From positions 1 through 59,104 of IMG/VR virus record IMGVR_UViG_3300044995_000110: 59,104 nucleotides of DNA; one strand, given 5' to 3'. A program made the translations under genes and the position numbers. This document shows, piece after piece, positions 41,360-59,104 of the stretch; positions within the stretch are counted from its first letter, which is position 1; each line of letters opens with the position of its first letter. This stretch comes from a virus. Under the pieces are notes generated by a model. It had not been told where the DNA came from and did no database searches. It saw only the letters and a list, made by a program, of their open reading frames with translations.

Positions 41360-41381
41360 GGCAATGGGCCTTTTTATCCCC

Positions 41382-41457: not shown

Positions 41458-41491
41458 GGGATGCCGTGTTTATTTACGTTGCTTCGTGGTT

Positions 41492-41809
41492 TCAGTTTGA
41501 GTTGTAGTCGTCATAGCTTCCCCGCAGCCAGTCGGACCCGACCGGGTTCCCAAGCCAGTAACGCTGGCTCACGGGGACCTTAATTGTGCGCGGGGCCGCT
41601 TCCCCGCAAAAGTGAGCCTCGGCCACGAGCGTGGCCTTATTAATAACGTAATTCGGCTCGGTGTGCGTCGCACCGACACTTAACAATCCAACGAGTCTTG
41701 GCGATTCGATGGATTTAATCCTTTTAGTGTCGTCGAACAGCTCGACGATAAATCCGTCGAGCTTCTTGATCTTGCAATAACCTTCATCGCTGAATTGATA
41801 TGTTTTCAT
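41492..41809 (-). CDS. Hypothetical protein
   Basis: The ATG at 41809 follows an AAGGAGCAG SD. The product is 105 aa. Confidence 0.65.
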   Translation of the reverse strand: MKTYQFSDEGYCKIKKLDGFIVELFDDTKRIKSIESPRLVGLLSVGATHTEPNYVINKATLVAEAHFCGEAAPRTIKVPVSQRYWLGNPVGSDWLRGSYDDYNSN

Positions 41810-41845
41810 CTGCTCCTTGGCTATGCCGTGCAGCACAATAGCCAC

Positions 41846-42308
41846 CCAGCCATTGCGCTGCCTGGCGTTTTTTACAGTTAGGGGAAAGGGGCTGGGCGGC
41901 TACTTGGCTTAACGCGGCCAGACGCGGGCCGCCCAGGATCTCTCATCCTATCGGTCGGGCGCTACTCCGCCTACGCGAATGAGATTGCCATGGTCCACTT
42001 GCCAGGCCAGACCATGGCGTTCCGACCTCCGCTTGTCGCATGACGAGGCCAGGCCGGTTAGGGCTTTACGCAGAGGCCCCAGGTGATGGGCTTACTCCAC
42101 ATCCACCAGGCTTGCTGCCCTAACGGGCACCGGGCTAAGGGCTCGGACCTTTCCCGGCCGCCCCCTATACGAAATCCATGGCCCCCCTTCTTCTATATAA
42201 TGGATACCTTACTGGCCAAAGAGGCCCATGGGGGGAGGGTAGTGGGGCACACCCCCCCCCTGTGCGTCTGCTTATTTTACACACCCCCTCAAAAAATTTC
42301 TTTATTGT
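41846..42308. other. 463-bp GC-rich non-coding region downstream of terL (an ncRNA or a packaging/recombination site)
   Basis: Neither strand has an ORF over 25 aa with protein-like composition. Stems include ctgggcggc/gccgcccag (41891-99/41929-37) and ccatggtc/gaccatgg (41989-96/42010-17). A C9 tract lies at 42252-42260. Confidence 0.5.
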
Positions 42309-44099: not shown

Positions 44100-44136
44100 A
44101 GGGGGCTGGCGTTAATATGTTAAGATAAAACAGTTG

Positions 44137-44165
44137 TTGACATTTATGGGTTATTCTACTAAAAA
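44137..44165 (+). promoter_or_regulatory. Promoter (TTGACA-17-TAAAAA) feeding the ATG at 44174 (or 44165)
   Basis: -35 is at 44137-44142 and -10 at 44160-44165. An in-frame ATG at 44174 lies 8 nt after the -10. Confidence 0.55.
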
Positions 44166-44479
44166 TGTTATCTATGCGACAAGAAAGTATGCTGCTGGAG
44201 GAGAAGTTAGCCGAGGATAATGGGGCAGGGGAATTGGATGTAGAAGAACGCAGTCGTGTGAAAAACGATTGTTTCCGGGAGTTTTGGGAGGAGAAGCTAG
44301 GGACGAGTGAATTTTCTGATTACTCTGCCTATCTTTGGACTCGTTCTCTGCACGTTGAAGCACTTAGGGTGGCCAATTATAAGATGTTGCCGATTGATCC
44401 CAATGTTTGGGTGGCTGTTTTGAAGCTGGCTGGGAAAAGGGTCCCATTCAACCGCAACAATCCCGCTGCTGTGTATTAG
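44165..44479 (+). CDS. Hypothetical protein; the true start may be the leaderless ATG at 44174
   Basis: A 104-aa ORF, the first gene of the late plus-strand block. Confidence 0.6.
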   Translation: MLSMRQESMLLEEKLAEDNGAGELDVEERSRVKNDCFREFWEEKLGTSEFSDYSAYLWTRSLHVEALRVANYKMLPIDPNVWVAVLKLAGKRVPFNRNNPAAVY

Positions 44480-44488
44480 GCTATTAAC

Positions 44489-45133
44489 ATGGGCATGAGA
44501 GTCCTCAAAGACCAATCAACCACCCCGCCGGGCGGGTTTGTGCATACGGAGTCAGGGAAGCATGCTTTAGGCCCTGGGACTGGGGAAGCCTGGTCGGAGG
44601 CGACTTTTGACATTTTGGTGAATCGGGTATTGGACTGGCTCAAGTCCAACAAGCATCCAGTCCCACATGACTTGGAGCGTCGGCTAATGGAAGAGCAGTG
44701 TGACCATCACCCAGCCCTTTGCCGGGATGAGTTTAACGATACTCTTGGACCTAAGAAAAAATACGCTGGGTTTTCGTGGCAGGAGGTTTTGGGGGCGGGG
44801 CAAGTGTTTGGCCATGCCATTAAGGCGTTGGCGGCAGGAGAAAGCCCGTTTGTTTCATTGAGTGAGGCGGAGCGGCGTTCGTCTATTTGCGCAACTTGCA
44901 GTCACAACGTGGAGCCGGATGGGTGTGCGCCTTGCGGGCTTGCGGGGGCATTAAGTTCCACTATGTCATGGCTTTCCAATCGTTCCACTTCCCATGATTC
45001 TAGCCTAAGAGCTTGCGTTTCTTGCGGATGTATGCTTAAAGGCAAGGTGCATCTGAAGAAAAAAATACTGCATGCTCACACTCATCTTCGTTCCCCTTAC
45101 CATCCAAGTTGCTGGATGCTAGAAAAAGAATAA
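44489..45133 (+). CDS. Cys-rich hypothetical protein
   Basis: This 214-aa ORF has CATCSH..., CAPCG and CVSCGC clusters. Confidence 0.65.
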   Translation: MGMRVLKDQSTTPPGGFVHTESGKHALGPGTGEAWSEATFDILVNRVLDWLKSNKHPVPHDLERRLMEEQCDHHPALCRDEFNDTLGPKKKYAGFSWQEVLGAGQVFGHAIKALAAGESPFVSLSEAERRSSICATCSHNVEPDGCAPCGLAGALSSTMSWLSNRSTSHDSSLRACVSCGCMLKGKVHLKKKILHAHTHLRSPYHPSCWMLEKE

Positions 45134-45150
45134 CACAACCATGTATTGCT

Positions 45151-45708
45151 ATGACCACTCAAATCAATTGGCCTGAACTTTTGGCGTTCATCCGCGACCG
45201 TGCGCGTGTCTTTTCGGGTGAGCCAGACATCCTTGTGATGGGCATTGCGGCTTATGACAGTCTCGCCGCTTGGGTGCGGAACAACTTGCAATTTGATGAT
45301 TTCCCCAATACTATTGCCGAACACGGCAATACGCCCTTGCGGATCGTTCTAGACCCCATGCTTAACCCCAACCAGGCTTACGCTAGCCATAGTGCCCGCA
45401 AAGTCCGCGAAGCCCTGCTCAATGGCTATACAATTGAGCCAATTACGGTTTTGCAGCCTCCCCCAAGCGCCATACCCGCCGATGGTGCCACGACGCAGGC
45501 TCCTCCTCCACCTGCCAGCACTACGGATAACATGCCGACGGCTGCAGCCTTGGATCAGGCTAACGATCCCACCAGCTCCGCCGCTCCTTCGGAGCTGGTG
45601 CCCCCAACTTCCCCCACCCAAGAAGTGCCATTTGTGCGGAAGCGACGCGGACGCCGACGGCTAGGCTTTGTGCCGCCTACTGAACAACCAACTGAGGTAA
45701 TGGCATGA
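45151..45708 (+). CDS. Hypothetical protein with a Pro/Ala/Thr-rich C-terminus
   Basis: The ATG at 45151 lies in frame within ORF 45109..45708. An ATGA overlap couples it to the portal gene. Confidence 0.6.
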   Translation: MTTQINWPELLAFIRDRARVFSGEPDILVMGIAAYDSLAAWVRNNLQFDDFPNTIAEHGNTPLRIVLDPMLNPNQAYASHSARKVREALLNGYTIEPITVLQPPPSAIPADGATTQAPPPPASTTDNMPTAAALDQANDPTSSAAPSELVPPTSPTQEVPFVRKRRGRRRLGFVPPTEQPTEVMA

Positions 45709-47954
45709 CGGATTCCTTTGCTAAGACTGAACTGGCCAACATTTCCGAGGATGGGGCAGTCCCCAAGCGCCGCATCCCTAATAGCAATGTTGCTTATTCC
45801 ATCTGGAAGAATTTTAAGGATGCTGACGACCGCACCGGGGCTGTGGACCGCGCTGCCGTGGAACGCATGTATAATGGCGCGCGCCCATTCGACCACGAAG
45901 AACTCAAAAGAACCGGACAGGCCCACCGAGCCAACTTCAACGATGGCACTGCCGCAGCCATCTTGCAGCAATCCGAAAGCGCTTACATCGACCTAATTTC
46001 TTCGGTAAATGATGTCTGTCACATCACCGTGGACCTCCCTGACGCTGCTTTGGCGCAGGACTGTGGCAGGATCATGACTGAAGAATACACCAAACTTTGT
46101 AATGACCAAGATGACTATGCCTACGCCGTGCAGTTGTTGGCACGTGAGTTTATCAAGCATGGCTTAGTGGTTGCGCTTTTCCCGGACGAATTTTCTCTTT
46201 CCTTTGACGTTAAGCGTCGCGGACAATTCCGCTGTTCCTTGGACGTTAAAGCCAATGAGCGCTTCATTGACGTCTGCTTCACCGATGTCGAAATGAAGCC
46301 ACATGAGCTTTATGAATACATCCGCAACCCCCAGCGCGCCAAGAATGGCGGATGGAATCGCGAGGCCGTCTTAAAATCCATTGCCAAGGCGTGCTCTGCC
46401 AAAAGTGGCGATGAGAGTATCGAAGAACTAGAATTTCGCTTGAAGAATAACGACCTAGGCGAAAGCTTGGGTAGGACTGTAACGGTTCATCTAACTCATT
46501 GTCTCGTCAAAGAGTTTTCCGGCAGGGTAAGCCACTACCTTATAAATACGGAGTTCCCTGATGCCGGCTTTTTGTTTGAGCGCCCGGAGCGATTTGACGC
46601 CATCAACCAGTGCATGGTGATTTTTACGTTTGGGGTAGGCAACGGGACAATTGGCAGTATTCGCGGCCAAGGACATGCCATTCTCAATGCCATCCAATAC
46701 TTGACGGCGTCGCGTATGCAAATGTTGGACATGAGCCGCATGTCGAGTTCTTTGCCTGTGCGTTGGAATAGCCCAACGGGCATGCAACAAGCCCCAATTT
46801 TCTACCAAGGCCCAATTTCCCATATCCCGCCAGGCGTTGACTTTATTTCAGTCAACTTTCCCAACTTAGGCCAAAACGTCATTCCAGTGATCGCGGAATT
46901 GCAAAGGATCATTCAGAATAACACAGGGGCTTATCACGTTCGCCAAATCACTCCAGACGGGCGCGAGCGAACCGCCACCGAAGTGGAAGCGCAAATCCGA
47001 CAGCATGCCATCCTTTCAACAGCTTCCATGGAATTGTTCTACCTCCCTTGGAGGCGCCTGCACAAAGAACGTGTCCGCCGCCTTACCAGCCCGCTTGTCC
47101 GTCAAAGTGATAAAGGCGCAGCGGAAATTTTTGCGTGGCGGAAGAGGTGCATGGAACGTGGCGTGCCATCGTATGCTTTTGAGCGAGTGGTCAATGTCGA
47201 GCCTGAACGGGCAGTGGGCCACGGCAGTAGCGGCATGCGAATGTTGGCCTTCCGCGAGCTTGTGGGCATGATGTCTATGTTTGATGAAGTGGGGCAACGC
47301 GAAGTCCTCCGCGCATTTGTTGCCTCCCACGTTGGGCCAAGACAGGCCGAACGCATTGTTCCGCGCTCTGCCGAGCCACGCCCAACGGTGGACAGCGCCA
47401 TTGTGCAGCTCGAAAACAATGACTTGTCCGAAGGCAAACAGGTGATCCCAACGTCCAACCAGTCGCACATGGTCCATATCCCCGCCCACCTGCAAGCCAT
47501 GGCCGCTGCCTTGCAAGGTGTTGCTCAGGGCCAAGCCCAACCAGAGGCAGTCATGGCATTTCTTATGGCCGGTCTCCCCCACGTTCAGGCACACCTTCAG
47601 TTTGTCTTGCGCGATCCAATCCACGCCAATCAGGTTGGGCAATTTACCAAACAGTATCAAGAAATCGAAGCCCAAGCGCAAAGTCTTTTGAGCCAACTCC
47701 AAGCCGAGGCCGCCAAGCAACAACAGGCCCAAATGCAGCAAGAAGCCGCTCTGGCAGGGCAACCTTTGAACCAAGAAGAGCAGCTCAAGCTGCAAGACAT
47801 GGCCATGAAATTGCAGTTGCAGAAGGCCGAACTCGAAAAAATCAAAACCCAGCAACAAATTGCCATCGAGCGCCATCAGGCATCCATGGCCGAAAAAGCG
47901 CAGAAAGCTGCGCAGCGTGATGTTCTTACCTCCCTCAAGGTAGCCGAGAAATAA
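45705..47954 (+). CDS. Portal protein (by size and position)
   Basis: This 749-aa ORF lies upstream of the scaffold-like and capsid-like genes and has a Q-rich C-terminus. The family was not verified. Confidence 0.65.
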   Translation: MTDSFAKTELANISEDGAVPKRRIPNSNVAYSIWKNFKDADDRTGAVDRAAVERMYNGARPFDHEELKRTGQAHRANFNDGTAAAILQQSESAYIDLISSVNDVCHITVDLPDAALAQDCGRIMTEEYTKLCNDQDDYAYAVQLLAREFIKHGLVVALFPDEFSLSFDVKRRGQFRCSLDVKANERFIDVCFTDVEMKPHELYEYIRNPQRAKNGGWNREAVLKSIAKACSAKSGDESIEELEFRLKNNDLGESLGRTVTVHLTHCLVKEFSGRVSHYLINTEFPDAGFLFERPERFDAINQCMVIFTFGVGNGTIGSIRGQGHAILNAIQYLTASRMQMLDMSRMSSSLPVRWNSPTGMQQAPIFYQGPISHIPPGVDFISVNFPNLGQNVIPVIAELQRIIQNNTGAYHVRQITPDGRERTATEVEAQIRQHAILSTASMELFYLPWRRLHKERVRRLTSPLVRQSDKGAAEIFAWRKRCMERGVPSYAFERVVNVEPERAVGHGSSGMRMLAFRELVGMMSMFDEVGQREVLRAFVASHVGPRQAERIVPRSAEPRPTVDSAIVQLENNDLSEGKQVIPTSNQSHMVHIPAHLQAMAAALQGVAQGQAQPEAVMAFLMAGLPHVQAHLQFVLRDPIHANQVGQFTKQYQEIEAQAQSLLSQLQAEAAKQQQAQMQQEAALAGQPLNQEEQLKLQDMAMKLQLQKAELEKIKTQQQIAIERHQASMAEKAQKAAQRDVLTSLKVAEK

Positions 47955-47987
47955 GACCCAATTAGCCAAGAAATAAGACGTCTATTT

Positions 47988-48275
47988 ATGGACACACTCG
48001 AACAATGGCACCGCAGCCCCGACAAATTGGCCTTTATTGAGGCCATGAACAGTCCAGCCGTCAAAAGAGCATTTGCGCTGGTGGCGCAAATTGGCCTAAG
48101 CCCAGACCTGCAGGCCAAAACCGATGAGGAGCATCGAAACGCCCACATTGCGCAACGCGGATTCTTTAATTGCCTTCAAGTTTTCAACCACTTGGCGGGG
48201 CCACCTCCAGAGCCTCAACTCCAATCCCCCGCACCATTTGACTTTAAGGAACCAGAGCCAACGCCCGATAACTAA
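47988..48275 (+). CDS. Hypothetical protein
   Basis: A 95-aa ORF between the portal and scaffold genes. Confidence 0.55.
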   Translation: MDTLEQWHRSPDKLAFIEAMNSPAVKRAFALVAQIGLSPDLQAKTDEEHRNAHIAQRGFFNCLQVFNHLAGPPPEPQLQSPAPFDFKEPEPTPDN

Positions 48276-48325
48276 TATCCCCCGCCTTTTCTTAGATAAA
48301 ATCAAAGCCAAAACACGAAAATCCT

Positions 48326-49597
48326 ATGCCTGACCCTAAACTTGTATCCGAAATGACCACCATACTGTTCAACTCTCCTGCTGAAAATGGGGATGCCGAA
48401 ACCAATGAGCCTCAAGCCGCAGTAGAGCCAGCCGAACCAGCGGAGACCCCCGCTCCCACCAACGCAACTTCGGAAGCCCCATCCGAATTAGGGCAGACCA
48501 AGCCAGACAAGGCACCGCAAGAAGCCCCCAAGGATGTCCTCGAAAAAATCATCCCCAAAGACAAGCAGCAAACCCCACCCGCCAAAACAGAACTCCCCGA
48601 AGAACAGCCCAAAGGCAAAGATGCCGGCAGCCTTTGGAAAAGCCTCCGATCTACGCTCAAATCTAAAGAACAAGAACTTGAGTCGATCAAGCCGCAATTG
48701 CAGGCCAAAGAAAAAGAATTGGCCGAACTTCGCGCCGCCTTGGAACAGGCGCAAAAAGCCAACACGTCAGGCGAGCTTGAGCTTCTTAAAGACCAAATCA
48801 AATCCCTAAAAGAGCAATTGGCAGAACGCGATAGGGTCATCTCTGCCGTCAAGGTGGAGCACTCGCCCAAGTTCAAGGAAGCTGTTGCTGCTCCTCTGCA
48901 GGCAGCAGAAAAGCGGATTGCCGAGCTTGCCAAGCGATATGGCGTCAAACCATCGCTTCTTCTGGAAATTGCCGATGAGCCTGACCAGGAAAAGCGCATT
49001 GCTCTTGCGCGAGAGGCTGGAGAAACCTGGCACCCCACAGACCTGCTTCGCCTGGAAAACGAGCTAGACAATGTAAGCTCATTGAGGGCCAAGCGGGACG
49101 AGCTGCTCAAATCAGCGCCCGATGTTGTTTCTGCTTGGGAAAAAGAAATGCAGGAAGCCACAGAGAAGCAAAGGCGGCAATTCATGGAAGAAAGTAAGGT
49201 GGCCTTCCAAAAGAAATGGGCCGACTTCCAAAAACAGGTGCCACTCTTTACCGAAAGCCAAGATGACTCCGATGCAGGAAGGGCTTGGAATAAGATGCTG
49301 GCCCAATTGCAGGCCGACGCCATTGAAATCGACAGTAAGCCGCTTTCCCATGAGGAACGGGCTGAACTCACCTACAAGGCGCTAGCCTTTGACCCGTTCT
49401 TTAAGATCGTCCAGAAAACCTTTGCCGCCATGTCCGAAGAAATCAACCAGCTTCGGAAACGAGATGCGGCCACCCGTGAAGGGCAGATTGATCTTGGAAG
49501 TGGTAGCACTGGGACTTCGGAAAATGCCAATGAGCCACTCCCCGCAACCGCCAGTGAGTTTGCCGGCCAGATTGCCAGCCGAATTGGGCTTCGATAA
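48326..49597 (+). CDS. Scaffolding protein candidate
   Basis: This 423-aa ORF is acidic, predicted to be highly helical/coiled-coil (E/K/L/A/Q rich), and lies between the portal and capsid genes. Confidence 0.55.
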   Translation: MPDPKLVSEMTTILFNSPAENGDAETNEPQAAVEPAEPAETPAPTNATSEAPSELGQTKPDKAPQEAPKDVLEKIIPKDKQQTPPAKTELPEEQPKGKDAGSLWKSLRSTLKSKEQELESIKPQLQAKEKELAELRAALEQAQKANTSGELELLKDQIKSLKEQLAERDRVISAVKVEHSPKFKEAVAAPLQAAEKRIAELAKRYGVKPSLLLEIADEPDQEKRIALAREAGETWHPTDLLRLENELDNVSSLRAKRDELLKSAPDVVSAWEKEMQEATEKQRRQFMEESKVAFQKKWADFQKQVPLFTESQDDSDAGRAWNKMLAQLQADAIEIDSKPLSHEERAELTYKALAFDPFFKIVQKTFAAMSEEINQLRKRDAATREGQIDLGSGSTGTSENANEPLPATASEFAGQIASRIGLR

Positions 49598-49630
49598 TCC
49601 ATCCAACACGACAACAACGAAAGAATTGCC

Positions 49631-50008
49631 ATGTCCGAAAATTCATTGATCCGGGGCACCATCGACCTGCTGCGCATGGCCGGGGTGAAGCTTATCGAAA
49701 AAGACACCCGCCGCTTTCTCGAAATTACCAACAGCCGCTTGTTTAAGGGGAGCAAGGGACTTTACCTCAACTTTGTGCTCAAGCCAACCCCTAATGGCCC
49801 ATACGGGGATTACATGATTGTCGAATCCCTCAGCAAAAAAGAACGCGAGGCCAATAAGAAAGCGGAAATCATTGGCAACGGCGTGTTCCTTCATTCCAAC
49901 AAGGGCAATGGGCGGGACAGTAGCAGCAAAATCCCAGCCCCCCAAGGCAAGGTTGAAGCCAATGAGCAGGGATGCCACATCATTAAGAATGACGAAATTC
50001 CGTTCTGA
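49631..50008 (+). CDS. Small protein ending in an SSB-type C-terminal tip (NDEIPF)
   Basis: The C-terminus ...IIKNDEIPF* resembles the bacterial SSB tail DDDIPF. I did not recognise the body as a canonical OB-fold. Confidence 0.6.
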   Translation: MSENSLIRGTIDLLRMAGVKLIEKDTRRFLEITNSRLFKGSKGLYLNFVLKPTPNGPYGDYMIVESLSKKEREANKKAEIIGNGVFLHSNKGNGRDSSSKIPAPQGKVEANEQGCHIIKNDEIPF

Positions 50009-50010
50009 CG

Positions 50011-50256
50011 ATGGGCCAATTGGGCGAGCCTGTGCAAGTTACACTAGAAACGCTTGATGCGGTTTTGCGAGGGGCTTTGCGATTGGGCCACATAGACAGC
50101 CTCATGGAGGCGGAATGGGTGATGGATGCTGGGCCAGATTTTCCCGAGTGGCTTGACCAAATAAATGCCCTCATGCTAAAGCACGGATGCTGTTTGTATG
50201 TGAGTCGCGCGGGGGATAAGACCAAGCTTATCCTTAGCTATGACTCACCGTTTTAA
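50011..50256 (+). CDS. Hypothetical protein
   Basis: An 81-aa ORF directly downstream of 49631..50008. Confidence 0.55.
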   Translation: MGQLGEPVQVTLETLDAVLRGALRLGHIDSLMEAEWVMDAGPDFPEWLDQINALMLKHGCCLYVSRAGDKTKLILSYDSPF

Positions 50257-50272
50257 TCAGCAAAAAAAATTG

Positions 50273-50301
50273 TTGACACAGCATCAACGTAAAATTAGTT
50301 T
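50273..50301 (+). promoter_or_regulatory. Promoter candidate (A-tract, TTGACA-17-TAGTTT) upstream of the capsid gene leader
   Basis: -35 is at 50273-50278. The -10 at 50296-50301 is weak. An A8 tract lies just upstream. Confidence 0.4.
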
Positions 50302-50546
50302 GGGCTAAAAGAAGGGTGCTGCAAATGGTCGCTGAACTTGGGCGTGCGACTGCCCGACAGCATCTACCGAGTTTCGTGGTCTTCGCTTGAGCAAGCGATA
50401 AACCATAGCTCATAGCGGCAATGCCGCAATGAGCGTGGCTTTCCGGGACCGGGAAAGGAAAAGCAAGCTGCCTGTTTGTGATTCATGCGAGTGCATGAGG
50501 AACGAGCAGACAAATGGCTAACCCAACCCGAAAGGAACCCTAAGCC

Positions 50547-51992
50547 ATGTCCACAGTGATTGACCAGCTGTTCCGCGAAACCGGACGAACTGCCGAAATC
50601 ATTGCCCGTTCGGTTTATCAGCACAGCCCTTACATTGACTTGATCCCCCGCGGCGCCTACCCCGCCGGCCTGGGCAATTCGATTGTGTATCAACAGTTTG
50701 AGAACAATCGAATCCAACGTGAACTCATTAACTTCCAGAACGTGACTGGGACGACCTACGGCTCGACTTCCAGCCAATGCACGTTCTCTGGACCTGAAGT
50801 TGGCAACGGGATGACCCAAAAATCCCTGCAGCTTGTCAACTTCTTTATGACCTCTAAGTGGTTCTGCGCCAAAGACTTTACCACGGCCTTTGAGTTTGAG
50901 AACCAGTGGGGCAACATCATCGACAACTTTGCGGAAAACACCCGTTGGGTTCTTGAAACCCATGGCCGCAACGAAGCCGCGCGCATTGCTGGCGAAAAGA
51001 TTGTTCTGACCTCCAACATCAATCGGAACCAGAACGACACTTCCTCGCCCCATGCGTTTCCCACTAGCGGGGGCAACCCAATTGTCCCGACCAGCCAGCT
51101 CACTCAGGATCACCTCTCCAAGTTCTACATGGAGATTCAGTCCCGTGGGGCCGGTGTCCAGTCTGCTTACGGCATGGAGTCGGGGCGCCCGGTTTATGCC
51201 TTGATTGCTGGTGCGGAAACCAGCGACCGCATCCTGCGCAACATCAATGCCCAGCGCCTTGACCTCAACTACGGCAAGCCCGATGAGCTGCTTCGCCCCC
51301 TGGGCGTGGACCGCACCTTCCGTGGTTTCGCCCATATCCACGACCTGTATCCCAGCCGCTACTACATTGGCCAGGCGCCGGTGAACGTGACCTCCATCAC
51401 CCGCACCGGCACCACTGCCACTGTCACCACCGCCACCAACCACGGCTATGCGACTGGTGACTACGTGCACATTGCGGGGGCCGACAGCACCACCGACCCG
51501 CAAATGCGAGCCTACAATGGGGCCAAGGTGATCACCGTCACTTCGCCCACTACGTTCACCTACACCGTGGCCAACGGGCCTAGCTCGCCGGCCACCGGCA
51601 CGATCACGGCTCGCCGCCTTGGCTCCACCACGGGCGCCAACCATGCCTACATCGAAGTCAGTCCCTTCGATGTCACCAGTGCTACCCTGGGTGAAAAAAC
51701 CGTGTTCTCGCCCATCTATGATGCCGCTCCCTTTGAGCGCAGCCTCATTTGGGTGAAGGATGCCTGTAAGTTCCTCATCCCGCCTCTGCCACCGCGCAAG
51801 GGATTCAAGCATAACCTCAATAGTTATGTGGGGGACTTCACCCTTGTGCCGGATAAGAGTAACAATGACCCGTATGGGCTTCGTTTCCGCTATGTCTCCC
51901 TGTTTGAGATGGCGACGATGATCCTGCGGAACGAGCGCGTTTATTCGATCCTGCACCTGCGTTGCCAGCCCACTGCCGTGGCCTGCACCTAA
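50547..51992 (+). CDS. Major capsid protein candidate
   Basis: This 481-aa ORF follows the scaffold-like gene and has a GGAAC/AAGG SD region. A T/G/A-rich insertion (TRTGTTATVTTATNHGYATGDYVHIAGA) is present. The family was not verified. Confidence 0.6.
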   Translation: MSTVIDQLFRETGRTAEIIARSVYQHSPYIDLIPRGAYPAGLGNSIVYQQFENNRIQRELINFQNVTGTTYGSTSSQCTFSGPEVGNGMTQKSLQLVNFFMTSKWFCAKDFTTAFEFENQWGNIIDNFAENTRWVLETHGRNEAARIAGEKIVLTSNINRNQNDTSSPHAFPTSGGNPIVPTSQLTQDHLSKFYMEIQSRGAGVQSAYGMESGRPVYALIAGAETSDRILRNINAQRLDLNYGKPDELLRPLGVDRTFRGFAHIHDLYPSRYYIGQAPVNVTSITRTGTTATVTTATNHGYATGDYVHIAGADSTTDPQMRAYNGAKVITVTSPTTFTYTVANGPSSPATGTITARRLGSTTGANHAYIEVSPFDVTSATLGEKTVFSPIYDAAPFERSLIWVKDACKFLIPPLPPRKGFKHNLNSYVGDFTLVPDKSNNDPYGLRFRYVSLFEMATMILRNERVYSILHLRCQPTAVACT

Positions 51993-52104
51993 TCCATAGT
52001 ATCCTCCTGAAAGCCTGGGCCGCCCTAAGAAGGCGGTCCAGGCTAAGGGCGGGATGAAGTAAAAAAAGAATCTCTCAACGAAAGCCCCCATCCCCACCAC
52101 CACC

Positions 52105-52401
52105 ATGAAATCAGAAAAATCAAAAAACGCCTACCCGGAGTTTTCCGTTGACGGATTCCAGATTCCCGAAGGCGTTAAACCTGGCGAAGATTTTGAAATT
52201 GTGGCCACCCTTCGTGCCAGCGAGTCTGGCACACTGATGCTAATTGCCGTTGAAGGCATGCCGGTGACTCAAGTAGAACCAGATTCTGAGAAAGAAAAAG
52301 CCTTGGAGTCGCGCGACCCGAAATCCGAAATGTTTGAAAAAATGCGCGGATTTTACGAAAAGACCAAAGGCCAAATGCCCAAAGAAGAAGAAGAGGAGTA
52401 G
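52105..52401 (+). CDS. Hypothetical protein (head-associated?) with an acidic tail
   Basis: A 98-aa ORF that ends in EEEEE. Confidence 0.6.
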   Translation: MKSEKSKNAYPEFSVDGFQIPEGVKPGEDFEIVATLRASESGTLMLIAVEGMPVTQVEPDSEKEKALESRDPKSEMFEKMRGFYEKTKGQMPKEEEEE

Positions 52402-52407
52402 CCCGCC

Positions 52408-54027
52408 ATGAGCGCAAGCCCTGATTTTATTCGGAAGATTCAACGCATCTACAACCGCCTCAATGGCGCCCCCTATGACGGCACCGTTAACGAAAGCGTC
52501 GATGTGCTTGCGGAAAAACTTGCCGATTTGACAGAGGAATCGGTTGGCCCTGATGGGAAAATCTTGCACAGCAAGCTTGCCAACTCGTTTGAGCCAAAAA
52601 CTAGTTCATTCACCGCTCAGAATGGCGGTCATTACCGCACCACCGGAACGATCACTGTTACTGATGCCCCCTCACCTGTTGCTGGGCATTATTATGTTGT
52701 GCTGGTTCAGTCAGGAACAGCAACGATTGGCGGAACAGGTTTTGGTCCTTCCCGAGTTCCTGTTTACCGTTACTATAACGGCACCAGTTGGGTCACATTG
52801 GGGCCAGAAGGCGAAGTTGTCGGAACGACCGCAACGCAGACTTTAACGAACAAAACGATTGAGAACCCCACCATTATTAGCGGGAATTTTATTCGTAACT
52901 CTAGTAACCTTAGTCTTTGGTCGGCAAACATTTACACGCCCACCATTTACGAACCGAGCATTAGGTTTAGTCAACGAACATCCTCATTTACCGCAGAAGC
53001 CTATAAGTATTACGCTACAGCCGGCACGGTTACTGTTACCGATCCAGCTTCGGCAAGCGCAGAAGATTACTATTTTGTCCTCGTCCAATCTGGCACAGCC
53101 ACGATTGGTGGGGTTGCTTTTGGGCCTTCTCGCTTCCCCATTTACCGTTACTACAACGGAACCAGTTGGGTGACGCTGCCTGTGTCGTTGGCCACGGACG
53201 CCACCCTAAACGGGCCGAACAACACGGCCCCCAACCAAACGGCGGCTTCGGCTTCGTCCCTCATGACGAGGGCGTTGTGTGATGATCGCTATGCGCCTAA
53301 ATCCCTGCAAAACAATTCCCCAGCTTTAGACGCCATGCTTTTAGCCTGTCGCCCTGCTTTGCGATTTGGGACGACGTGGCAACTAGCCAATGGAGGAACA
53401 TGGTCCAATTGGACGCCCACTAATGACAACTCTTGGGCTCAATTACGATTGCAAGTAGCAGCTTCAACCGCCCCCAGTTGGTCTCGCGCGAGTATTTACA
53501 ACTTTAATTTGTTAACTGGAGAAGCAAGCAATACTTACGCTAATCGTGGCTTTATTTTCTCGGCTTGGCTAAATACGCCCGGCGATTCTGCGGCCATTGG
53601 GATGCGGACCACGTTTTACTTTGGCGGAACGGGGAGCGAGACGGGGGGAGCGTTGTCAGACCGTGGGCTTCGGGTTGCGTTTGTTGGCAACAGCCCCAAC
53701 TCAGATTATTTGGTTGAAGCGGCCATTCACAACGGCACTAGCGAGACTTTACAATCTGCAAATGTTGCCACAGCCAATTTCCGTAACGGCATCATGATTC
53801 GTTGGCTTCCCGTGGGGGGACCGCCGACATCAGGCTCACAGCTTCAAGTATGGGGGCTGGGCGCTGACAAAGTGTTGCGCTTGCTAACGACTGCAACTCT
53901 TTCAAGCGCCTTCTCTAACAACAATTTTGCTGGCTCTCGATTTGTGGTTGTGGCCAGTTCTGTTGGGACTACGCCTGGCTATACCGCCAACTGGGAAATT
54001 GGAGGCATGACAGTATTCATTGACTAA
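52408..54027 (+). CDS. Fibre/spike-like protein with an internal tandem domain duplication
   Basis: Two segments of about 75 aa are highly similar (TSSFTA...YY.VLVQSGTATIGG..FGPSR.P.YRYYNGTSWVTL). Confidence 0.7.
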   Translation: MSASPDFIRKIQRIYNRLNGAPYDGTVNESVDVLAEKLADLTEESVGPDGKILHSKLANSFEPKTSSFTAQNGGHYRTTGTITVTDAPSPVAGHYYVVLVQSGTATIGGTGFGPSRVPVYRYYNGTSWVTLGPEGEVVGTTATQTLTNKTIENPTIISGNFIRNSSNLSLWSANIYTPTIYEPSIRFSQRTSSFTAEAYKYYATAGTVTVTDPASASAEDYYFVLVQSGTATIGGVAFGPSRFPIYRYYNGTSWVTLPVSLATDATLNGPNNTAPNQTAASASSLMTRALCDDRYAPKSLQNNSPALDAMLLACRPALRFGTTWQLANGGTWSNWTPTNDNSWAQLRLQVAASTAPSWSRASIYNFNLLTGEASNTYANRGFIFSAWLNTPGDSAAIGMRTTFYFGGTGSETGGALSDRGLRVAFVGNSPNSDYLVEAAIHNGTSETLQSANVATANFRNGIMIRWLPVGGPPTSGSQLQVWGLGADKVLRLLTTATLSSAFSNNNFAGSRFVVVASSVGTTPGYTANWEIGGMTVFID

Positions 54028-54439
54028 TATGAAAACCATTAAATCCATCCACGTCGCAGAATCCGAATCCGTCATTTACTACCAAGATGGCGAGTATCGG
54101 GCAAACCTCGCAATCCCCATTTCCGACCTTTCCATAGAGCAGAACGCCATACGGCAAGCAGCGTTGGACTGGTTTGTTGGGCAGCTTGCCCAAGGTGAGA
54201 CATTGGCGGGGAACATCATTCTCGACATTCGGCGAAATGCCATTTTGGTTGATGCCGGAGATAACGAAGCCGATCCGCCCGTGCTTCCGACGTATCGGCA
54301 CGAAGTCATTGGCGTGGCAACGGTGCAAAGTCCGCTGGGGCAACGCACAATTTCCCGCTCGTCCGAGACTATGCCCACCGAACTCCGTGAGGGCTTCCTT
54401 GCACTTCTGGCAGGGATTGAAGCAAAGATCAATGAATGA
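54020..54439 (+). CDS. Hypothetical protein
   Basis: A 139-aa ORF that overlaps its upstream neighbour by 8 nt. Confidence 0.6.
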   Translation: MTNMKTIKSIHVAESESVIYYQDGEYRANLAIPISDLSIEQNAIRQAALDWFVGQLAQGETLAGNIILDIRRNAILVDAGDNEADPPVLPTYRHEVIGVATVQSPLGQRTISRSSETMPTELREGFLALLAGIEAKINE

Positions 54440-54728
54440 GTCCGTGCGCCCACAACGAGAAAATGAAGAAGTCGCGTCCAAGCTGCGAGAGCTTGAGATC
54501 AGGCTCATTGGCATCGACGGGAACAACGGACTCACCAAGCGGGTGCATGACTTGGAGCAAAATATGAATGAGGGGCTTGAAAAGCTGATGGCGCGTCTCG
54601 ACCGCATTGCGGCGGAACGAGACCAGCGACTGCACGAGCTTGAAAAGCGTGTTTATCTCGTTTGCGGAGTCCCAGCCATTGTTGCGGCAACTGCTGCCGC
54701 ATTGAAGTTTTTGCACCTCGTCAACTAA
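54432..54728 (+). CDS. Coiled-coil protein with a C-terminal TM anchor (lysis-associated?)
   Basis: The ATG at 54432 lies in frame within ORF 54174..54728. The sequence runs MNESVRPQRENEE... to VCGVPAIVAATAAALKFLHLVN. Confidence 0.5.
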   Translation: MNESVRPQRENEEVASKLRELEIRLIGIDGNNGLTKRVHDLEQNMNEGLEKLMARLDRIAAERDQRLHELEKRVYLVCGVPAIVAATAAALKFLHLVN

Positions 54729-54744
54729 CAAAAAGGAAACAAAA

Positions 54745-54948
54745 ATGAGCCTCATCATCCAACGCATCATCCGCCAGGGCCTAACCGCCGCCGCTGGCTA
54801 CCTCGTCGCCAAGGGCGTGATCAACGCTGACGCCGCCGGTTCGTGGACCAGTGCAGGGGTTGAGTTTTTCTCTGCCCTTGTCTTGTTTGCGGTTTCGTGG
54901 GTTTGGTCCACGATGAACGCCCACTTGCTGTCCCGCAAAAAATCCTGA
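54745..54948 (+). CDS. Holin candidate
   Basis: This 67-aa protein has two hydrophobic segments and a basic C-terminus (LLSRKKS). It lies upstream of the endolysin. Confidence 0.5.
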   Translation: MSLIIQRIIRQGLTAAAGYLVAKGVINADAAGSWTSAGVEFFSALVLFAVSWVWSTMNAHLLSRKKS

Positions 54949-54951
54949 CCC

Positions 54952-55134
54952 ATGGAAGCACTCGCCTTATGGCTTGGCACCTTGCTAGGTGCCGCGCTCA
55001 AGGAGTGCGCTCCTGTGCTGCGCGACATCTTGCGTGACGCCATCCGTGAGGCCATCACACCGACGGTTGAGGACGGCAAGCGCGATCCTGACTTGCGCCA
55101 GCGGCTTGTCAACAAAATCAAGGAGGTGCAATGA
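54952..55134 (+). CDS. Small N-terminally anchored protein (i-spanin-like?)
   Basis: This 60-aa protein has a hydrophobic N-terminus followed by a charged helix. Confidence 0.4.
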   Translation: MEALALWLGTLLGAALKECAPVLRDILRDAIREAITPTVEDGKRDPDLRQRLVNKIKEVQ

Positions 55135-55376
55135 CGATTGCCAACGTCATCAAAATCTGGACTGCGCTTGCTCTAGCGAGCATCTGTGCTGGCTTTGCCC
55201 TCGCTGGCTGCGCAACGCGGACGATTTACGTGCCACCCGGCGAGCCTGTCCGTTTGGCTGCGCCAATTAAAAATGCGCCCGTGTGGGTGCGTGATGCTCA
55301 AGGCAAATGGGTGCGTGGCCGTGTCACGTTGCAGGAGGGCTGGTATGCCTTGCCAGACCCCGGACCGGAGAAATAA
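55131..55376 (+). CDS. Lipoprotein (o-spanin-like?)
   Basis: The signal peptide carries the lipobox LAGC (ALASICAGFALAGCAT). The protein is 81 aa. Confidence 0.55.
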   Translation: MTIANVIKIWTALALASICAGFALAGCATRTIYVPPGEPVRLAAPIKNAPVWVRDAQGKWVRGRVTLQEGWYALPDPGPEK

Positions 55377-55379
55377 AAG

Positions 55380-55982
55380 ATGAATCGCTGGCCGGGACGC
55401 AATGAGCGCAAAAAAATCCTCCGCAAAATCATATCCGGCGAGCGACCTTTGCCGATTGTTAGCAAGCCGCCCGAAGTTGCCGCCAAGCCACCACTTAACA
55501 AAGCGAGCCAAGCGGCTCCTCCAAGCATGGTTTTTGACGCGCGATCCGAGCGAAATCTGAAAACCTTGCAGCCGCACGCCGAAGCGCGCTTTCGCGAGTG
55601 GCTTCAAGCTGTGCGCAACGCGGGCATCCCAGCCGTTATTATCTGCGGCACAAGGACATTTGCAGAGCAAGCCGAAATCTACGCCCAAGGTAGGACTAAG
55701 CCCGGGCCAATCGTCACCAAGGCAGCGCCAGGTGACTCAATGCACAACTACGGAGTGGCGATTGATTTTGTGGTGTTTGACGGTGTTGACGAAAAAGGTG
55801 GCGTGGGTCAGCCCAGGTGGGATAGTCCATTGATGGCCAAGGCAGGACAGATCGCGCTTGAGATGGGTCTGGATTGGGGCGGCGCCTGGAAAACATTTAA
55901 AGACACTCCACACATCCAACTGCCCGGAATGAGGATTGCCGAGCTGAGACAGGTTTTGCCGCACGGCTGGATTCCTGCCTAA
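55380..55982 (+). CDS. Endolysin, peptidase M15 (VanY / L-Ala-D-Glu peptidase-like)
   Basis: SMHNYGVAIDF matches the H..G.A.D pattern, and DTPHIQL follows. The protein is 200 aa. Confidence 0.8.
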   Translation: MNRWPGRNERKKILRKIISGERPLPIVSKPPEVAAKPPLNKASQAAPPSMVFDARSERNLKTLQPHAEARFREWLQAVRNAGIPAVIICGTRTFAEQAEIYAQGRTKPGPIVTKAAPGDSMHNYGVAIDFVVFDGVDEKGGVGQPRWDSPLMAKAGQIALEMGLDWGGAWKTFKDTPHIQLPGMRIAELRQVLPHGWIPA

Positions 55983-55991
55983 CGGTCTTGC

Positions 55992-56855
55992 ATGAAAAAC
56001 AAAAAATGGACCATCACCAAACTAGGCCCCAACGTCCATGCGCTAGACCTTCACATGGAGCACGCCGGCGAGGAGCAAGAGGTTCTTTTCCAGGCCGATG
56101 AGCACTGGGATAACGCCCACTGTCGCTTGGACCTGCTCAAACGCCACCACGAAGAAGCCAAGGCTCTAGGCGCGCCAATCCTGAAGTTTGGCGATGTCTT
56201 TTGCGCTATGCAGGGAAAGTGGGACAAACGAGCGTCGCAGGATCAATTGAGGGCCGAGCATAGAGGATGCAACTACCTGGATCGCTTGGTCTCGACTGCG
56301 GCGGAATGGTATCGACCCTACAAAGACAACATAGCTCTGATTTGCCCCGGCAATCACGAAACATCCATTCTCAAAAGGCACGAAACGAACCTAACAGAAA
56401 GGCTTTGCGACCGCTTGGGCGTGGAGATGGGGAGCTATTGGGGCTATGTAGTGGTCAGACTTGCTAGGCACTGGAAGGGGATTCAGAAGAACGAATATCA
56501 TGTCCACATCCACTACCACCACGGCTACGGCGGAGGCGGGGAGGTGACTCGCGGGCTGATCGACCACAGCCGGACACGTGGCCAATACCTGGCCGACATC
56601 TACTTTTCGGGCCATATCCATCGGCGGAATATGGATGAGAACCAGATCGTCTATTGCGACCGCTTGGGCAACATCCGGGTGCGTGAGCAACTTTTCCTGC
56701 GCCTTGGGACCTACAAAGACGAACACGACTGCCACGGCTTTCATATCGAAAAGGGCAGGGCGGCACGGCCATTGGGCGGCTGGTGGGTGCGCTTCCGCTA
56801 CGAACGGCACAAAAACAACCACATCCTAACATTTGAGGAGCGTCGAGCCAAATGA
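55992..56855 (+). CDS. Calcineurin-like metallophosphoesterase
   Basis: The motifs ADEHWDN, FGDVF, PGNHE and SGHIH occur in the canonical order. Confidence 0.75.
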   Translation: MKNKKWTITKLGPNVHALDLHMEHAGEEQEVLFQADEHWDNAHCRLDLLKRHHEEAKALGAPILKFGDVFCAMQGKWDKRASQDQLRAEHRGCNYLDRLVSTAAEWYRPYKDNIALICPGNHETSILKRHETNLTERLCDRLGVEMGSYWGYVVVRLARHWKGIQKNEYHVHIHYHHGYGGGGEVTRGLIDHSRTRGQYLADIYFSGHIHRRNMDENQIVYCDRLGNIRVREQLFLRLGTYKDEHDCHGFHIEKGRAARPLGGWWVRFRYERHKNNHILTFEERRAK

Positions 56856-57100
56856 GCAAGTGCCCCCTTGAGTCTTTGGCACTGCGCTATCTTAAAGTAT
56901 TGGCCGAGCACGCCGACACGGTTGTGATTTTGGCGTCTGTCCCTGGGAGGCGGCCCGGGCAAAAGACTAAGCTGATCAGCCTGTGGACAGGCAATCAGTT
57001 TGCCGCTGAATACATGGCAAGCAACTTCAGTGTCTCAGGGGATGAGGAAGATGATGAGGATGAAGAGCCGTCCGAAGGCGACCCGCGCATCCGACATTGA
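56852..57100 (+). CDS. Hypothetical acidic protein
   Basis: An 82-aa ORF containing the acidic run DEEDDEDEE. Confidence 0.55.
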   Translation: MSKCPLESLALRYLKVLAEHADTVVILASVPGRRPGQKTKLISLWTGNQFAAEYMASNFSVSGDEEDDEDEEPSEGDPRIRH

Positions 57101-57112
57101 TACAAAAAGTAG

Positions 57113-57140
57113 TTGACTAGCGGCTGCTGACGTCTATGCG
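57113..57140 (+). promoter_or_regulatory. Promoter (AAAAAGTAGTTGACT-16-TATGCG) feeding a leaderless ATG at 57149
   Basis: -35 is at 57113-57118 and -10 at 57135-57140. The ATG lies 8 nt after the -10. The extended -35 box is shared with 29096-29100 and 31018-31023 (minus strand). Confidence 0.45.
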
Positions 57141-57148
57141 GTGGATTC

Positions 57149-57283
57149 ATGGACGAAATTCTTGACTACATCTTACTTGCTTTGGGCCTTGCGGTTGTCT
57201 TGGGGGGATTGACCGGATTGGTTGGTGCGCTGTGGGCGCTGGCCGAGGCATATTTTGGTGGCGACGAAGATCATGACTCCTGA
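57149..57283 (+). CDS. Small membrane protein (44 aa), hypothetical
   Basis: The product is MDEILDYILLALGLAVVLGGLTGLVGALWALAEAYFGGDEDHDS. The ORF is not in the supplied track because it is under 60 aa. Confidence 0.45.
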   Translation: MDEILDYILLALGLAVVLGGLTGLVGALWALAEAYFGGDEDHDS

Positions 57284-57716
57284 CTTAAACCTTCGCATCA
57301 ACAAGAACGGGAAAATTCTGCAAAGGCCAGTTGTGGCTTTTGCCGAGCCACCTTTTGCCCTTGCTCGCCGCATTGCCAGGGCGGCGCAGGGGAAGCGGCA
57401 TTTGGCGTCATGGCTGGCGTCTGTTGTTGTTTGGGATGCTTACGTCAACACTATCATCCCCAAGGAAGAACAAGGCAGTCACCGCGTGTTGCGGCTCATG
57501 CGGGGCTACAGACACAAGCAATGCCTAAGCCGAGACGACGAGCTGTGCCAGGCCATGATTCGCTTTGGCTACGAGGAAAAGTATTCAAAATTCCGCTCGC
57601 GTCCTGAGAATTATGGACATCAGCCAGCCTATCGTCGCGGCCCGCAGTTCCGTTTTAAGTTGTTGAAAGATTTTGAAATAACAAAAAAGCCCCATGCTAT
57701 TAGAGGTGCCGAATGA
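57273..57716 (+). CDS. Hypothetical basic protein
   Basis: The ATG at 57273 lies in frame within ORF 57222..57716. The product is 147 aa. Confidence 0.6.
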   Translation: MTPDLNLRINKNGKILQRPVVAFAEPPFALARRIARAAQGKRHLASWLASVVVWDAYVNTIIPKEEQGSHRVLRLMRGYRHKQCLSRDDELCQAMIRFGYEEKYSKFRSRPENYGHQPAYRRGPQFRFKLLKDFEITKKPHAIRGAE

Positions 57717-57889
57717 AAAAACTGAGCATCACTATCGCAATTTTGGAGGATCAAGCGCCACCCATCTCCGTGACAGCAACTAAAGTTGTCACTGCTAAAG
57801 AATTGCAGGCTTGCCTGCTTGAGCTTTCGCAAAAACTTTTAAATGACCTTGCCGCATTGATAGCCAAGCAATGCAAAACAAAATTTTGA
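57713..57889 (+). CDS. Hypothetical protein (58 aa)
   Basis: An ATGA overlap couples it to the upstream gene. The product starts MKKLSITIAILEDQAPP... The ORF is not in the supplied track because it is under 60 aa. Confidence 0.45.
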   Translation: MKKLSITIAILEDQAPPISVTATKVVTAKELQACLLELSQKLLNDLAALIAKQCKTKF

Positions 57890-57920
57890 AATATCTAGAA
57901 CTATACGCAAAATTGAGCTT

Positions 57921-59104
57921 ATGCAAGTGGGAAGAAGGTTTCGCCTGTATCCCAATGCCGAGCAAGAAAGCGTCTTGCGGCGGTGGATTGGCGCACAACG
58001 CTTTGTCTATAACGCGAAGATTGACGAATATCGCTATGAGGCATGGCTGCGCAACCGTGCTATTCTTTCTCCCTCTTGGACCGACCCCGATCCAAAAAAC
58101 ATCAGCCTCTTCAATCAGGCGTATTCCCATTTCCGTAAGAACAATCCCTGGATGAAGGAAGTCCCTTCGCAGATTTTTCGCAACGGATGCTATCGTTACG
58201 CCAAAGCCGTTCTGGCTGCGTCCCAAGGGGGTGGCGCACCAGTTATAAAAAACAGAGGTGGGAGGCAAAGCCTCGTGCTCACCCAAGAGCTTTTTACGAT
58301 CCAAGACGGATGCCTGCGCATTGGTTCAAGAAAGCAGGATTTAGGTTTTGTGCGCTGGAAAGCTCATCGGGAATTTGAGACTCCCAACATGCTTGTCGTC
58401 AGCGTGGAAGCTGATGGAAGATGGTTCGCTGGGTTTAGTTACGACGACGGAATTGAGGCTCCCAAACTTCCCGCGCACATCGAAAACGAGGGACATGTTT
58501 TGGGCGTGGACTTGGGTGTTGCTCGCAGTGTCACAACTTCTGAGGGAGTTGTCATCCATCCAACGCCAGAAGCCACGCGCTCCTACTTCCAATGCGAGAA
58601 AAAGGCAAGGCGATTGCAGCGCAAAATGGCGCGGCAGCGTAAGCGTTCCCACCGCAGAGAAAAGACCCGAAAGCGTATTGCCCGCCTCAAAGCCAAGCAA
58701 AGACGCATCCGGCGAGACTTTGCCCACAAGGCTTCCCATGCGTTGTGCCATACCCCGCACAAAGCCATCGCCTTTGAGAATTTGCGCCTAAGCGACATGA
58801 CCGCTGCCCCTGAACCCCGCCCAAAAGAAGACGGCAAGGGTTACGAACGCAATGGCGCAGCGGCAAAGGCCGGACTCAATGCTTCCTTGCTGCGTTGGGG
58901 CCTGGGGCTTATTCGCCAGTATGCGGCCTACAAAGCCCCACGTCGCGGCAAGTATTTTGTGCTCGTATCCGCCGCTTATTCCAGCCAGGAGTGCTCGCAT
59001 TGCCACCACGTTAACCCTCTAAATAGACGGTCCCAAGCCGAGTTTGTCTGCCAGGCTTGCGGAACAACCCTCAACGCCGATCACAACGGCGCAATTATCA
59101 TTGC
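57921..59104 (+). CDS. tnpB: TnpB (IS605 OrfB family) RuvC-type RNA-guided endonuclease; the ORF runs off the window end and finishes at 176
   Basis: The N-terminus is MQVGRRFRLYPNAEQESVLRRWIGAQRFVYNA. RuvC-I is GVDLGV, RuvC-II is AIAFENL, the zinc finger is CSHCHH...CQACG, and RuvC-III is NADHNGAIII. The reconstructed length is 429 aa. The ORF is absent from the supplied track because it has no stop inside the window. Confidence 0.9.
   Translation, partial: MQVGRRFRLYPNAEQESVLRRWIGAQRFVYNAKIDEYRYEAWLRNRAILSPSWTDPDPKNISLFNQAYSHFRKNNPWMKEVPSQIFRNGCYRYAKAVLAASQGGGAPVIKNRGGRQSLVLTQELFTIQDGCLRIGSRKQDLGFVRWKAHREFETPNMLVVSVEADGRWFAGFSYDDGIEAPKLPAHIENEGHVLGVDLGVARSVTTSEGVVIHPTPEATRSYFQCEKKARRLQRKMARQRKRSHRREKTRKRIARLKAKQRRIRRDFAHKASHALCHTPHKAIAFENLRLSDMTAAPEPRPKEDGKGYERNGAAAKAGLNASLLRWGLGLIRQYAAYKAPRRGKYFVLVSAAYSSQECSHCHHVNPLNRRSQAEFVCQACGTTLNADHNGAIII
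59035..59104. repeat. Terminal direct repeat, copy 2
   Basis: This stretch is identical to bases 1-70. Confidence 0.95.

Follow-up and report, generated by a model that had tools for sequence, protein, structure and literature searches.

Can a TnpB nuclease that has lost its transposase still act on, and spread among, the phages that carry it? The question is raised by the viral DNA record IMGVR_UViG_3300044995_000110 of IMG/VR (positions 1 to 59,104; hereafter the window, which denotes this whole stretch of 59,104 nucleotides (nt)), in which a gene for a TnpB RNA-guided nuclease runs across the two ends of the sequence and lies within the remains of an N6/N4 methyltransferase (methylase) gene. 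An earlier note on this DNA, drawn up without database searches, had described the gene as a probably active tnpB with no tnpA and almost no left end, as an immobilised or domesticated copy, and had suggested a use against competitors or host DNA, or for retention of the gene by homing. The analysis presented here points, with fair confidence, to an immobile but probably active TnpB-omegaRNA cassette, whose function, as judged from comparison with related loci, would be TnpA-independent homing or the cleavage of competitor genomes.

The window begins and ends with the same 70 bases (1-70 and 59035-59104), which indicates a circular or terminally redundant assembly with 59034 unique base pairs (bp). 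Across this overlap the tnpB open reading frame (ORF) extends from the ATG at 57921 to 59104 and resumes at 71..176; it contains no stop or frameshift and encodes 429 amino acids (aa). Three Pfam domains were detected in the protein, all of them exceeding the curated cut-offs: HTH_OrfB_IS605 (E 5e-11), OrfB_IS605 (E 3e-16) and Cas12f1-like_TNB (E 2e-18). In a sequence search against solved TnpB structures, which covered residues 7-404, D197, E286 and D387 aligned with the catalytic residues D191, E278 and D361. The corresponding motifs are GVDLGV (195-200), AFENL (284-288) and NADHNGA (385-391), and the zinc-finger cysteine pairs are CSHC (358-361) and CQAC (377-380). The Pfam assignments and the structure alignment agree with the intact RuvC triad and the two CxxC pairs that had been read from the sequence in the earlier note, and no inactivating substitution was found. 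Close homologues of the protein were recovered at 94, 86, 74, 71 and 55% identity. Judged by these comparisons, the nuclease is probably catalytically intact and the TnpB-omegaRNA cassette probably functional.

An uninterrupted frame of this kind could also be the product of assembly, if the circular join, placed inside a repeated insertion sequence (IS), had mixed the tnpB halves of different copies. The contig does end within the element, with an overlap of only 70 bp, and several copies of 94-97% identity occur in sister samples. However, both flanks belong to the same methylase gene in the same orientation, and an identical 429-aa protein is encoded without interruption on an independent contig of 36 kilobases (kb) from JGI, which argues against an artefactual join within tnpB. 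We give this explanation hardly any credence.

The second part of the cassette, the omega-RNA, is predicted at the 3' end of tnpB. The stop codon lies 5 nt from the end of the element, so that nearly all of the scaffold overlaps the coding sequence. When about 50 distinct right ends were folded independently, a common architecture emerged: a 5' hairpin (92-112), an outer stem (117-120/147-150) that encloses a hairpin of variable sequence (125-139), and a terminal hairpin (154-173). When the right ends were aligned in register, the outer stem and the terminal hairpin were 100% paired, with compensatory changes at three pairs; the covariation score was reached by none of 500 shuffles, and slid registers were about 50% paired. 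Since the terminal hairpin doubles as the DNA hairpin of TnpA, an omega-RNA is indicated more specifically by the outer stem and the inner hairpin. An attempt to align the diverse right ends with MAFFT and RNAalifold had returned the terminal hairpin only, the variable inner hairpins being misaligned, and was replaced by per-sequence folds with a count of pairs. Moreover, conservation is higher over the last 132 nt than over the remainder of tnpB (98.5 versus 94.5% in comparison with the copy in the sibling phage L001, and 85.6 versus 69.1% in comparison with L009), as would be expected if the stretch also encodes an RNA and a transposon end.

Sequence comparison identifies the parent of the window copy as a mobile element of the IS200/IS605 family, of IS605 type, because an invariant right end with many different flanks, tnpA-bearing copies and hairpin ends occur together. 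The right end reads ...GTAGTTCAC in every copy, and its 24-nt pattern was found on 75 metagenome contigs with approximately 45 different 3' flanks. In its full form of about 1771 bp the element comprises a left-end hairpin, a divergent Y1 tnpA, tnpB and a right end with the omega-RNA coding sequence. A divergent Y1 (HUH) tnpA is situated directly upstream of tnpB wherever upstream sequence is available (L005, L006-8, L012, L013 and L106), and a tnpA remnant is visible at this position in L009. The copy in L106 is complete, with an intact 133-aa TnpA, and is 96.8% identical at the nucleotide level to the window segment; the TnpB proteins of L012 and L005 share 94 and 86% aa identity with that of the window. 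The left end of L106 starts as CGAATGAGCGGCGCATTCCACTTGCGTAAGCTGGGGG, immediately after TCTTGAA. The same left end occurs after GTGTGAA in L005 and after ATTGAA in L009, and in all three copies a left-end hairpin, CCCCTTGCGTAAGCTGGGGG, mirrors the right-end hairpin CTCCCTGCGTAAGCAGGGGG.

Two observations on these relatives may be added. The L005 copy (91% identical) is decaying: its tnpA is truncated, with 100 aa left, and its tnpB is broken into parts of 294 and 137 aa. It is located about 1 kb from an AcrVA2-like gene (L005 104-712, minus strand, and 1494-3118). The full-length L106 copy also adjoins an N6_N4 methyltransferase gene (L106 3938-4408, minus strand).

Compared with the full form, the window copy is truncated at its 5' end and measures 1324 bp (57892..59034 plus 1..181). 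On the right, all relatives lose homology exactly after 181. At the left boundary, the tnpA-bearing copies match the window from 57892 onwards, at a distance of 5-6 nt from their tnpA start codon, or from 57886 in the blastn matches to L005 and L106 when the TTGA microhomology is counted. Upstream, a 58-aa ORF stops at 57889, 31 nt before the tnpB ATG, and this spacing had been taken in the earlier note to leave little room for a left end. The 31 nt and the missing hairpin stand, but this stretch does not represent a left end reduced to a minimum: as homology to the tnpA-bearing copies starts 29 nt before the ATG, these nucleotides correspond to the internal tnpA-tnpB spacer, retained after a deletion of about 791 bp. 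Of the two subterminal hairpins of IS605 elements, the right-end one at 154-173 is invariant across copies and the left-end one is absent; a search of the entire window yielded only the former. TnpA, which an IS605 element encodes within its own boundaries, is not encoded in the window copy, and the copy is for this reason a derivative and not a complete member of the group. The claim that the genome holds no transposase was borne out as well, as Pfam and PHROGs scans over approximately 50 ORFs of the window detected no transposase, integrase or recombinase domains, and the cognate Y1 TnpA of close relatives had no tblastn match in the window (best E ~1).

The interrupted gene can be recognised from both sides of the element. 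After the tnpB stop, the same frame enters a fragment that matches only positions 160-219 of the 221 positions of the Pfam N6_N4_Mtase profile, and the sole DPPY motif of the genome belongs to a separate, intact methyltransferase gene (26038..26772, minus strand). In L001, whose sequence agrees with the window at 97% identity along 5.4 kb of the downstream flank (blastn), the methylase gene is intact (MQNKILKEERIGG...DPPY...FMGTGTT). Relative to this allele, 344 bp of the gene are gone from the window, with the tnpB segment in their place, and the right flank of the window copy, CGCCAAGC..., directly follows the TGAA of ATATGAA in the intact allele. These junctions are consistent with a history in two steps. 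A full element would first have been inserted in the methylase gene 3' of ...ATATGAA, without target duplication; a deletion would then have fused methylase codon 7 to the tnpA-tnpB intergenic region at the microhomology TTGAAA/TTGACA. We infer that this was a single deletion of about 791 bp, composed of about 447 bp of the IS and 344 bp of the methylase gene, and that it removed the left end together with tnpA. Because the deletion took the left end, the window copy could presumably no longer be excised or transposed, even with TnpA provided in trans. The left junction (57887-57891) is itself positioned directly 3' of TGAA(A), the target motif of the element; this may be due to chance or to the microhomology, or may have been left by TnpA in an aberrant event.

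The length of the window copy has a counterpart in a tnpB-only subfamily of about 1.32 kb, found in many contexts with the same 24-nt right end and no adjacent tnpA (metagenome loci L015, L016, L022, L026, L039, L040, L060 and L088). The window copy, at 1324 bp close to the approximately 1318 bp of this subfamily, could hence be read as a non-autonomous, IS1341-like tnpB-only element with a very short left end, mobilisable by a host TnpA in trans. Nevertheless, the subfamily possesses a hairpin-bearing left end of its own (CTAYCTCTGCGGGG...CTCCCTCCGCAAGGGGGGAG, about 70 nt) that is missing from the window copy, and the subfamily was rejected on this ground as proof of a functional short left end. 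Furthermore, the 29 nt of the window align with the internal spacer of full copies, and the flanks are not contiguous in the empty allele, in which the 344 bp missing from the window lie between them. An IS1341-like origin is thus very unlikely.

The sibling phage provides the reciprocal allele. Its own copy, 95% identical to that of the window, has a right end that abuts ATAACAAAAAAGCCCC..., a sequence found at position 57678 of the window, and the same junction is present in L107, from another sample. This site (site A in Table 1) is uninterrupted in the window and preceded by TTTTGAA. The L001 element is placed 558 bp upstream of the window insertion site, and each phage is occupied at one site and empty at the other. 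The identities of the window copy to L106 (96.8%), L012 (95.9%) and the sibling's copy (95.0%), together with the 97% identity of the phage backbones, are compatible with either separate acquisitions or a local hop. Five independent insertions were found to lie 3' of TGAA without duplication, as seen in the left flanks of L005, L009 and L106 and in the two reciprocal empty-site comparisons. Comparison with related phages, proposed in the earlier note as the means of defining the insertion boundaries and the target-adjacent motif (TAM), thus places the element at 57892..181 and gives TGAA as the candidate TAM.

The guide of TnpB is formed by the 16-20 nt after the right end (PMC8612924, PMC10278001). 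Positions 1-18 of the predicted window guide are identical to the intact methylase allele of L001, with TGAA immediately 5'; in the window itself the guide sequence is preceded by GTTCAC and so has no TAM. Reciprocally, window 57678-57705 agrees fully with positions 1-28 of the L001 guide, and TGAA stands directly before it at 57674-57677. No TAM-flanked self-target was found in the window or in the sibling, and the second methyltransferase gene was rejected as a self-target, as it has three mismatches, including the seed, and no TGAA. The distribution is the one expected of a homing system, in that the target is present in a relative lacking the insert (L001) and absent from the genome that carries the guide, and the homing or competitor idea of the earlier note fits with a predicted guide that matches the uninterrupted allele of the sibling. 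Reciprocal targeting follows automatically from IS605 biology; still, each of the two nucleases, if active, is programmed against the other phage.

On the favoured reading of an immobile, probably active cassette, tnpB would either share the transcription of the late plus-strand genes or have a promoter of its own at the junction, and TnpB would process the 3' end of its own transcript to an omega-RNA bearing the guide CGCCAAGCACTGGTCTGG. The complex would cut DNA in which TGAA is followed by CGCCAAGCACTGGTCT, that is, the uninterrupted methylase allele of L001, and the phage's own copy would be protected by the right end that replaces the TAM. In a mixed infection, the genome of the competitor would either be destroyed or be converted by recombinational repair, and the cassette and the linked methylase deletion could spread without a transposase ('non-restorative' homing). 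A further step, suggested only tentatively, is a reciprocal RNA-guided conflict between sibling phages, by gene drive or exclusion, in which the drive of the window phage would be fully independent of transposition.

Regarding expression, tnpB is co-oriented with the upstream genes, with no gap between them. A sigma-70-like site, TTGAAA-16-CAAAAT (57886-57913, plus strand), spans the junction, with the -35 from the phage and the -10 from the IS spacer; full copies have TTGACA where the junction of the window has TTGAAA. The consensus scan did not call the promoter placed by the earlier note at 57113-57140. A 94-aa ORF (57871-58155, plus strand) now begins at the former methylase ATG (57871) and crosses the tnpB start at 57921 in a different frame.

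Several considerations weigh against a functional cassette. Its support comes from sequence comparison. Sigma-70-like sites are not more numerous than expected from shuffles, the evidence for a promoter is weak, and the 94-aa ORF could interfere with tnpB translation, or could be coupled to it. Rfam, at gathering as well as permissive thresholds, returned no omega-RNA family and only a chance snoRNA match, and the predicted omega-RNA is delimited on its 3' side. TGAA as a candidate TAM is drawn from only five sites, and the phage lineage of the window is known from two genomes (the window and L001/L107), which limits any claim of drive or co-infection. The ratio of nonsynonymous to synonymous substitution (dN/dS) of tnpB, 0.21-0.32 versus close copies and about 0.09 versus more distant ones, mixes selection before and after the truncation, and the intact ORF may simply be too young to have decayed, since it is 96.8% identical to a full-length copy.

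These considerations meet in the main rival explanation, by which the IS was truncated not long ago and the copy is either without effect on the phage or a slight burden to it, with a TnpB that is not made or not active in the infection cycle and an ORF that is intact owing to its youth. Such near-identity to the full-length element leaves little time for decay; L005, with its split tnpB and truncated tnpA, shows exactly the decay to be expected; the insertion destroyed a phage gene; and no promoter is clearly supported. TnpB genes are, in addition, frequent passengers of phages: a homologue is present in 538 of 50,697 GenBank phage records, and TnpB on phages is common in itself. On the other hand, the parts of the nuclease (ORF, catalytic residues, omega-RNA hairpins and exact right end) are all intact, while those required for transposition alone are gone, and the gapless, co-oriented position of tnpB behind the upstream genes also speaks against mere wreckage. 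We regard an inert copy as possible rather than probable.

A different fate would be domestication. TldR proteins are phage-encoded, nuclease-dead derivatives of TnpB that have lost RuvC residues and act as RNA-guided repressors. The existence of such phage-encoded regulators, together with the absence of tnpA and of a left end, would agree with a TldR-like repressor in the window, or with a nuclease directed at host DNA or unrelated competitors. However, neither loss of RuvC residues nor C-terminal truncation, the hallmarks of TldR, is seen in the window protein, which retains the triad and is full length at 429 aa. Its guide is the insertion flank and matches the phage's own methylase gene instead of a host-like target, and the near-identical autonomous copies, together with the other site in the sibling, imply recent mobility and not long fixation. 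The earlier note had itself named, as an outcome that would overturn its view, an element polymorphic among relatives with intact IS ends and a tnpA partner. Exactly this was found, and it counts against 'domesticated', as the close relatives have tnpA and intact ends and the site is polymorphic; 'immobilised' is retained, given the absence of tnpA and of the left end. We consider domestication very improbable. The features on which the preferred reading of a probably active cassette is built are listed in Table 1.

Table 1. Positions of the features of the tnpB locus in the window and the basis of each assignment
Feature	Position	Strand	Basis
Empty insertion site A: TGAA (57674-57677), then ATAACAAAAAAGCCCC...	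57674..57705	+	Right ends of L001/L107 abut it; guide match 1-28
5' remnant of the N6/N4 methyltransferase gene, codons 1-7 (MQNKILK)	57871..57891	+	Intact gene of L001; homology to L001 flank ends at 57891; overlaps end of 58-aa ORF
Putative deletion junction, phage TTGAAA versus element TTGACA, 5/6 microhomology	57886..57891	+	Junctions of window, L001, L005, L012 and L106 compared
29 nt of the tnpA-tnpB intergenic region (TATCTAGAACTATACGCAAAATTGAGCTT)	57892..57920	+	Homology to L005, L012 and L106 starts here
tnpB, codons 1-395	57921..59104	+	Reading frame, Pfam, structure alignment, motifs; 59035-59104 duplicates 1-70
tnpB, 3' part	1..176	+	Stop TAG at 174-176; 1-70 duplicates window end
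3' part of predicted omega-RNA scaffold and IS right end	92..181	+	Ends ...GTAGTTCAC at 181
Predicted omega-RNA guide (CGCCAAGCACTGGTCTGG)	182..199	+	First bases of 3' flank
3' remnant of the methyltransferase gene (...AKHWSG to stop)	182..476	+	Pfam N6_N4_Mtase 160-219/221; collinear with intact gene of L001

The rest of the window corresponds to the genome of a tailed phage and encodes a DnaB-like helicase, a large terminase, an endolysin, exonucleases, RusA and a dUTPase. The 3.6 kb of DNA around the junction had no match among GenBank phages, and no further close siblings were found when viral contigs were searched with the methylase and the upstream 147-aa protein. In a scan of a genome collection with TnpB, only matches in Streptomyces and Chloroflexi were obtained, at 30-42% identity. 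A ribbon-helix-helix (CopG-like) gene (738-938, plus strand) is located 560 bp downstream of the tnpB element and is preceded by the best sigma-70-like site of the region (701-729, TTGACA-17-TATATT, 11 of 12 matches). Since this gene is situated beyond the ends of the IS, a relationship to the Arc proteins of IS605 elements is improbable.

Further features of the genome are distant from the element. A 263-aa reverse transcriptase (34038-34829, minus strand; Pfam RVT_1, E 2e-25) was detected, and a repeat search over 24000-40000 revealed no obvious template/variable repeat pair of a diversity-generating retroelement near it. At 35315-38184 (minus strand), a gene for a DUF2201 metallopeptidase/VWA-like protein, which holds a 12/18-nt periodic repeat at 36008-36177, adjoins that of a MoxR-like AAA ATPase. 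A single ORF of 3488 aa (14286-24752, plus strand) takes up 10.5 kb of the 59-kb genome. Several pairs of direct repeats of 40-96 nt (D2-D7, 76-88% identity) are distributed over 25981-31843, at or near gene starts, and may be duplicated regulatory or leader regions of small paralogous genes.

Among known systems, the closest comparison is with IS605 and ISDra2 (Karvelis 2021, PMC8612924), with which the window copy shares a three-domain TnpB, a D-E-D RuvC triad and a zinc finger. A subterminal hairpin at the right end, an omega-RNA at the 3' end of tnpB and a guide taken from the flank are likewise common to both (PMC8612924). Insertion 3' of a short motif without duplication is a further shared property, and relatives of the window copy carry the Y1 tnpA. 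The window copy differs in having neither tnpA nor the whole left end, and its candidate TAM is TGAA, whereas that of ISDra2 is TTGAT. In addition, its TnpB has low identity to ISDra2 TnpB (E 7e-17), and its stop codon lies 5 nt from the element end. TldR is similar in being a TnpB-family protein borne by a phage without a transposase, but the window protein keeps all three catalytic residues and its guide is its own insertion flank.

TnpB is known to skew the inheritance of its transposon. Homing by TnpB has been described (Meers et al. PMC10055086), as has the TnpB-driven, TnpA-independent spread of IS605 through plasmid populations (Mears et al. PMC11870625). As in this plasmid IS drive (PMC10055086, PMC11870625), the guide of the window copy records the insertion site, and the ribonucleoprotein is predicted to cut IS-free copies and thereby to favour IS-bearing ones. 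The differences are that the element is here carried by a phage, has lost the ability to transpose and is faced, in the sibling, by a second allele whose predicted guide is directed at the window genome. The locus therefore offers a natural test case, with occupied and empty alleles at two sites, a candidate TAM, TGAA, and two guides. It also contains a built-in control, since the window copy cannot transpose and any spread would have to be nuclease-driven homing. Should TnpB prove inactive, the locus would instead illustrate, at high resolution, how an IS decays in a phage genome.

Homing from phage to phage, into co-infecting phages, has only been called theoretically possible (PMC13565253). 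A phage parallel is given by the free-standing homing endonucleases of T-even phages, such as SegF and SegB of T4, and the marker exclusion that they cause (PMC13565253). As with these enzymes, the nuclease gene of the window lies between conserved genes and is predicted to cut the corresponding site of co-infecting relatives, and preferential inheritance with flanking markers would follow. In contrast to SegF and SegB, however, recognition by the window nuclease would be RNA-guided and set by the presence or absence of the insert, and not by sequence polymorphisms read by the protein. If this is true, marker exclusion among phages would be brought about by RNA-guided nucleases as well as by protein homing endonucleases.

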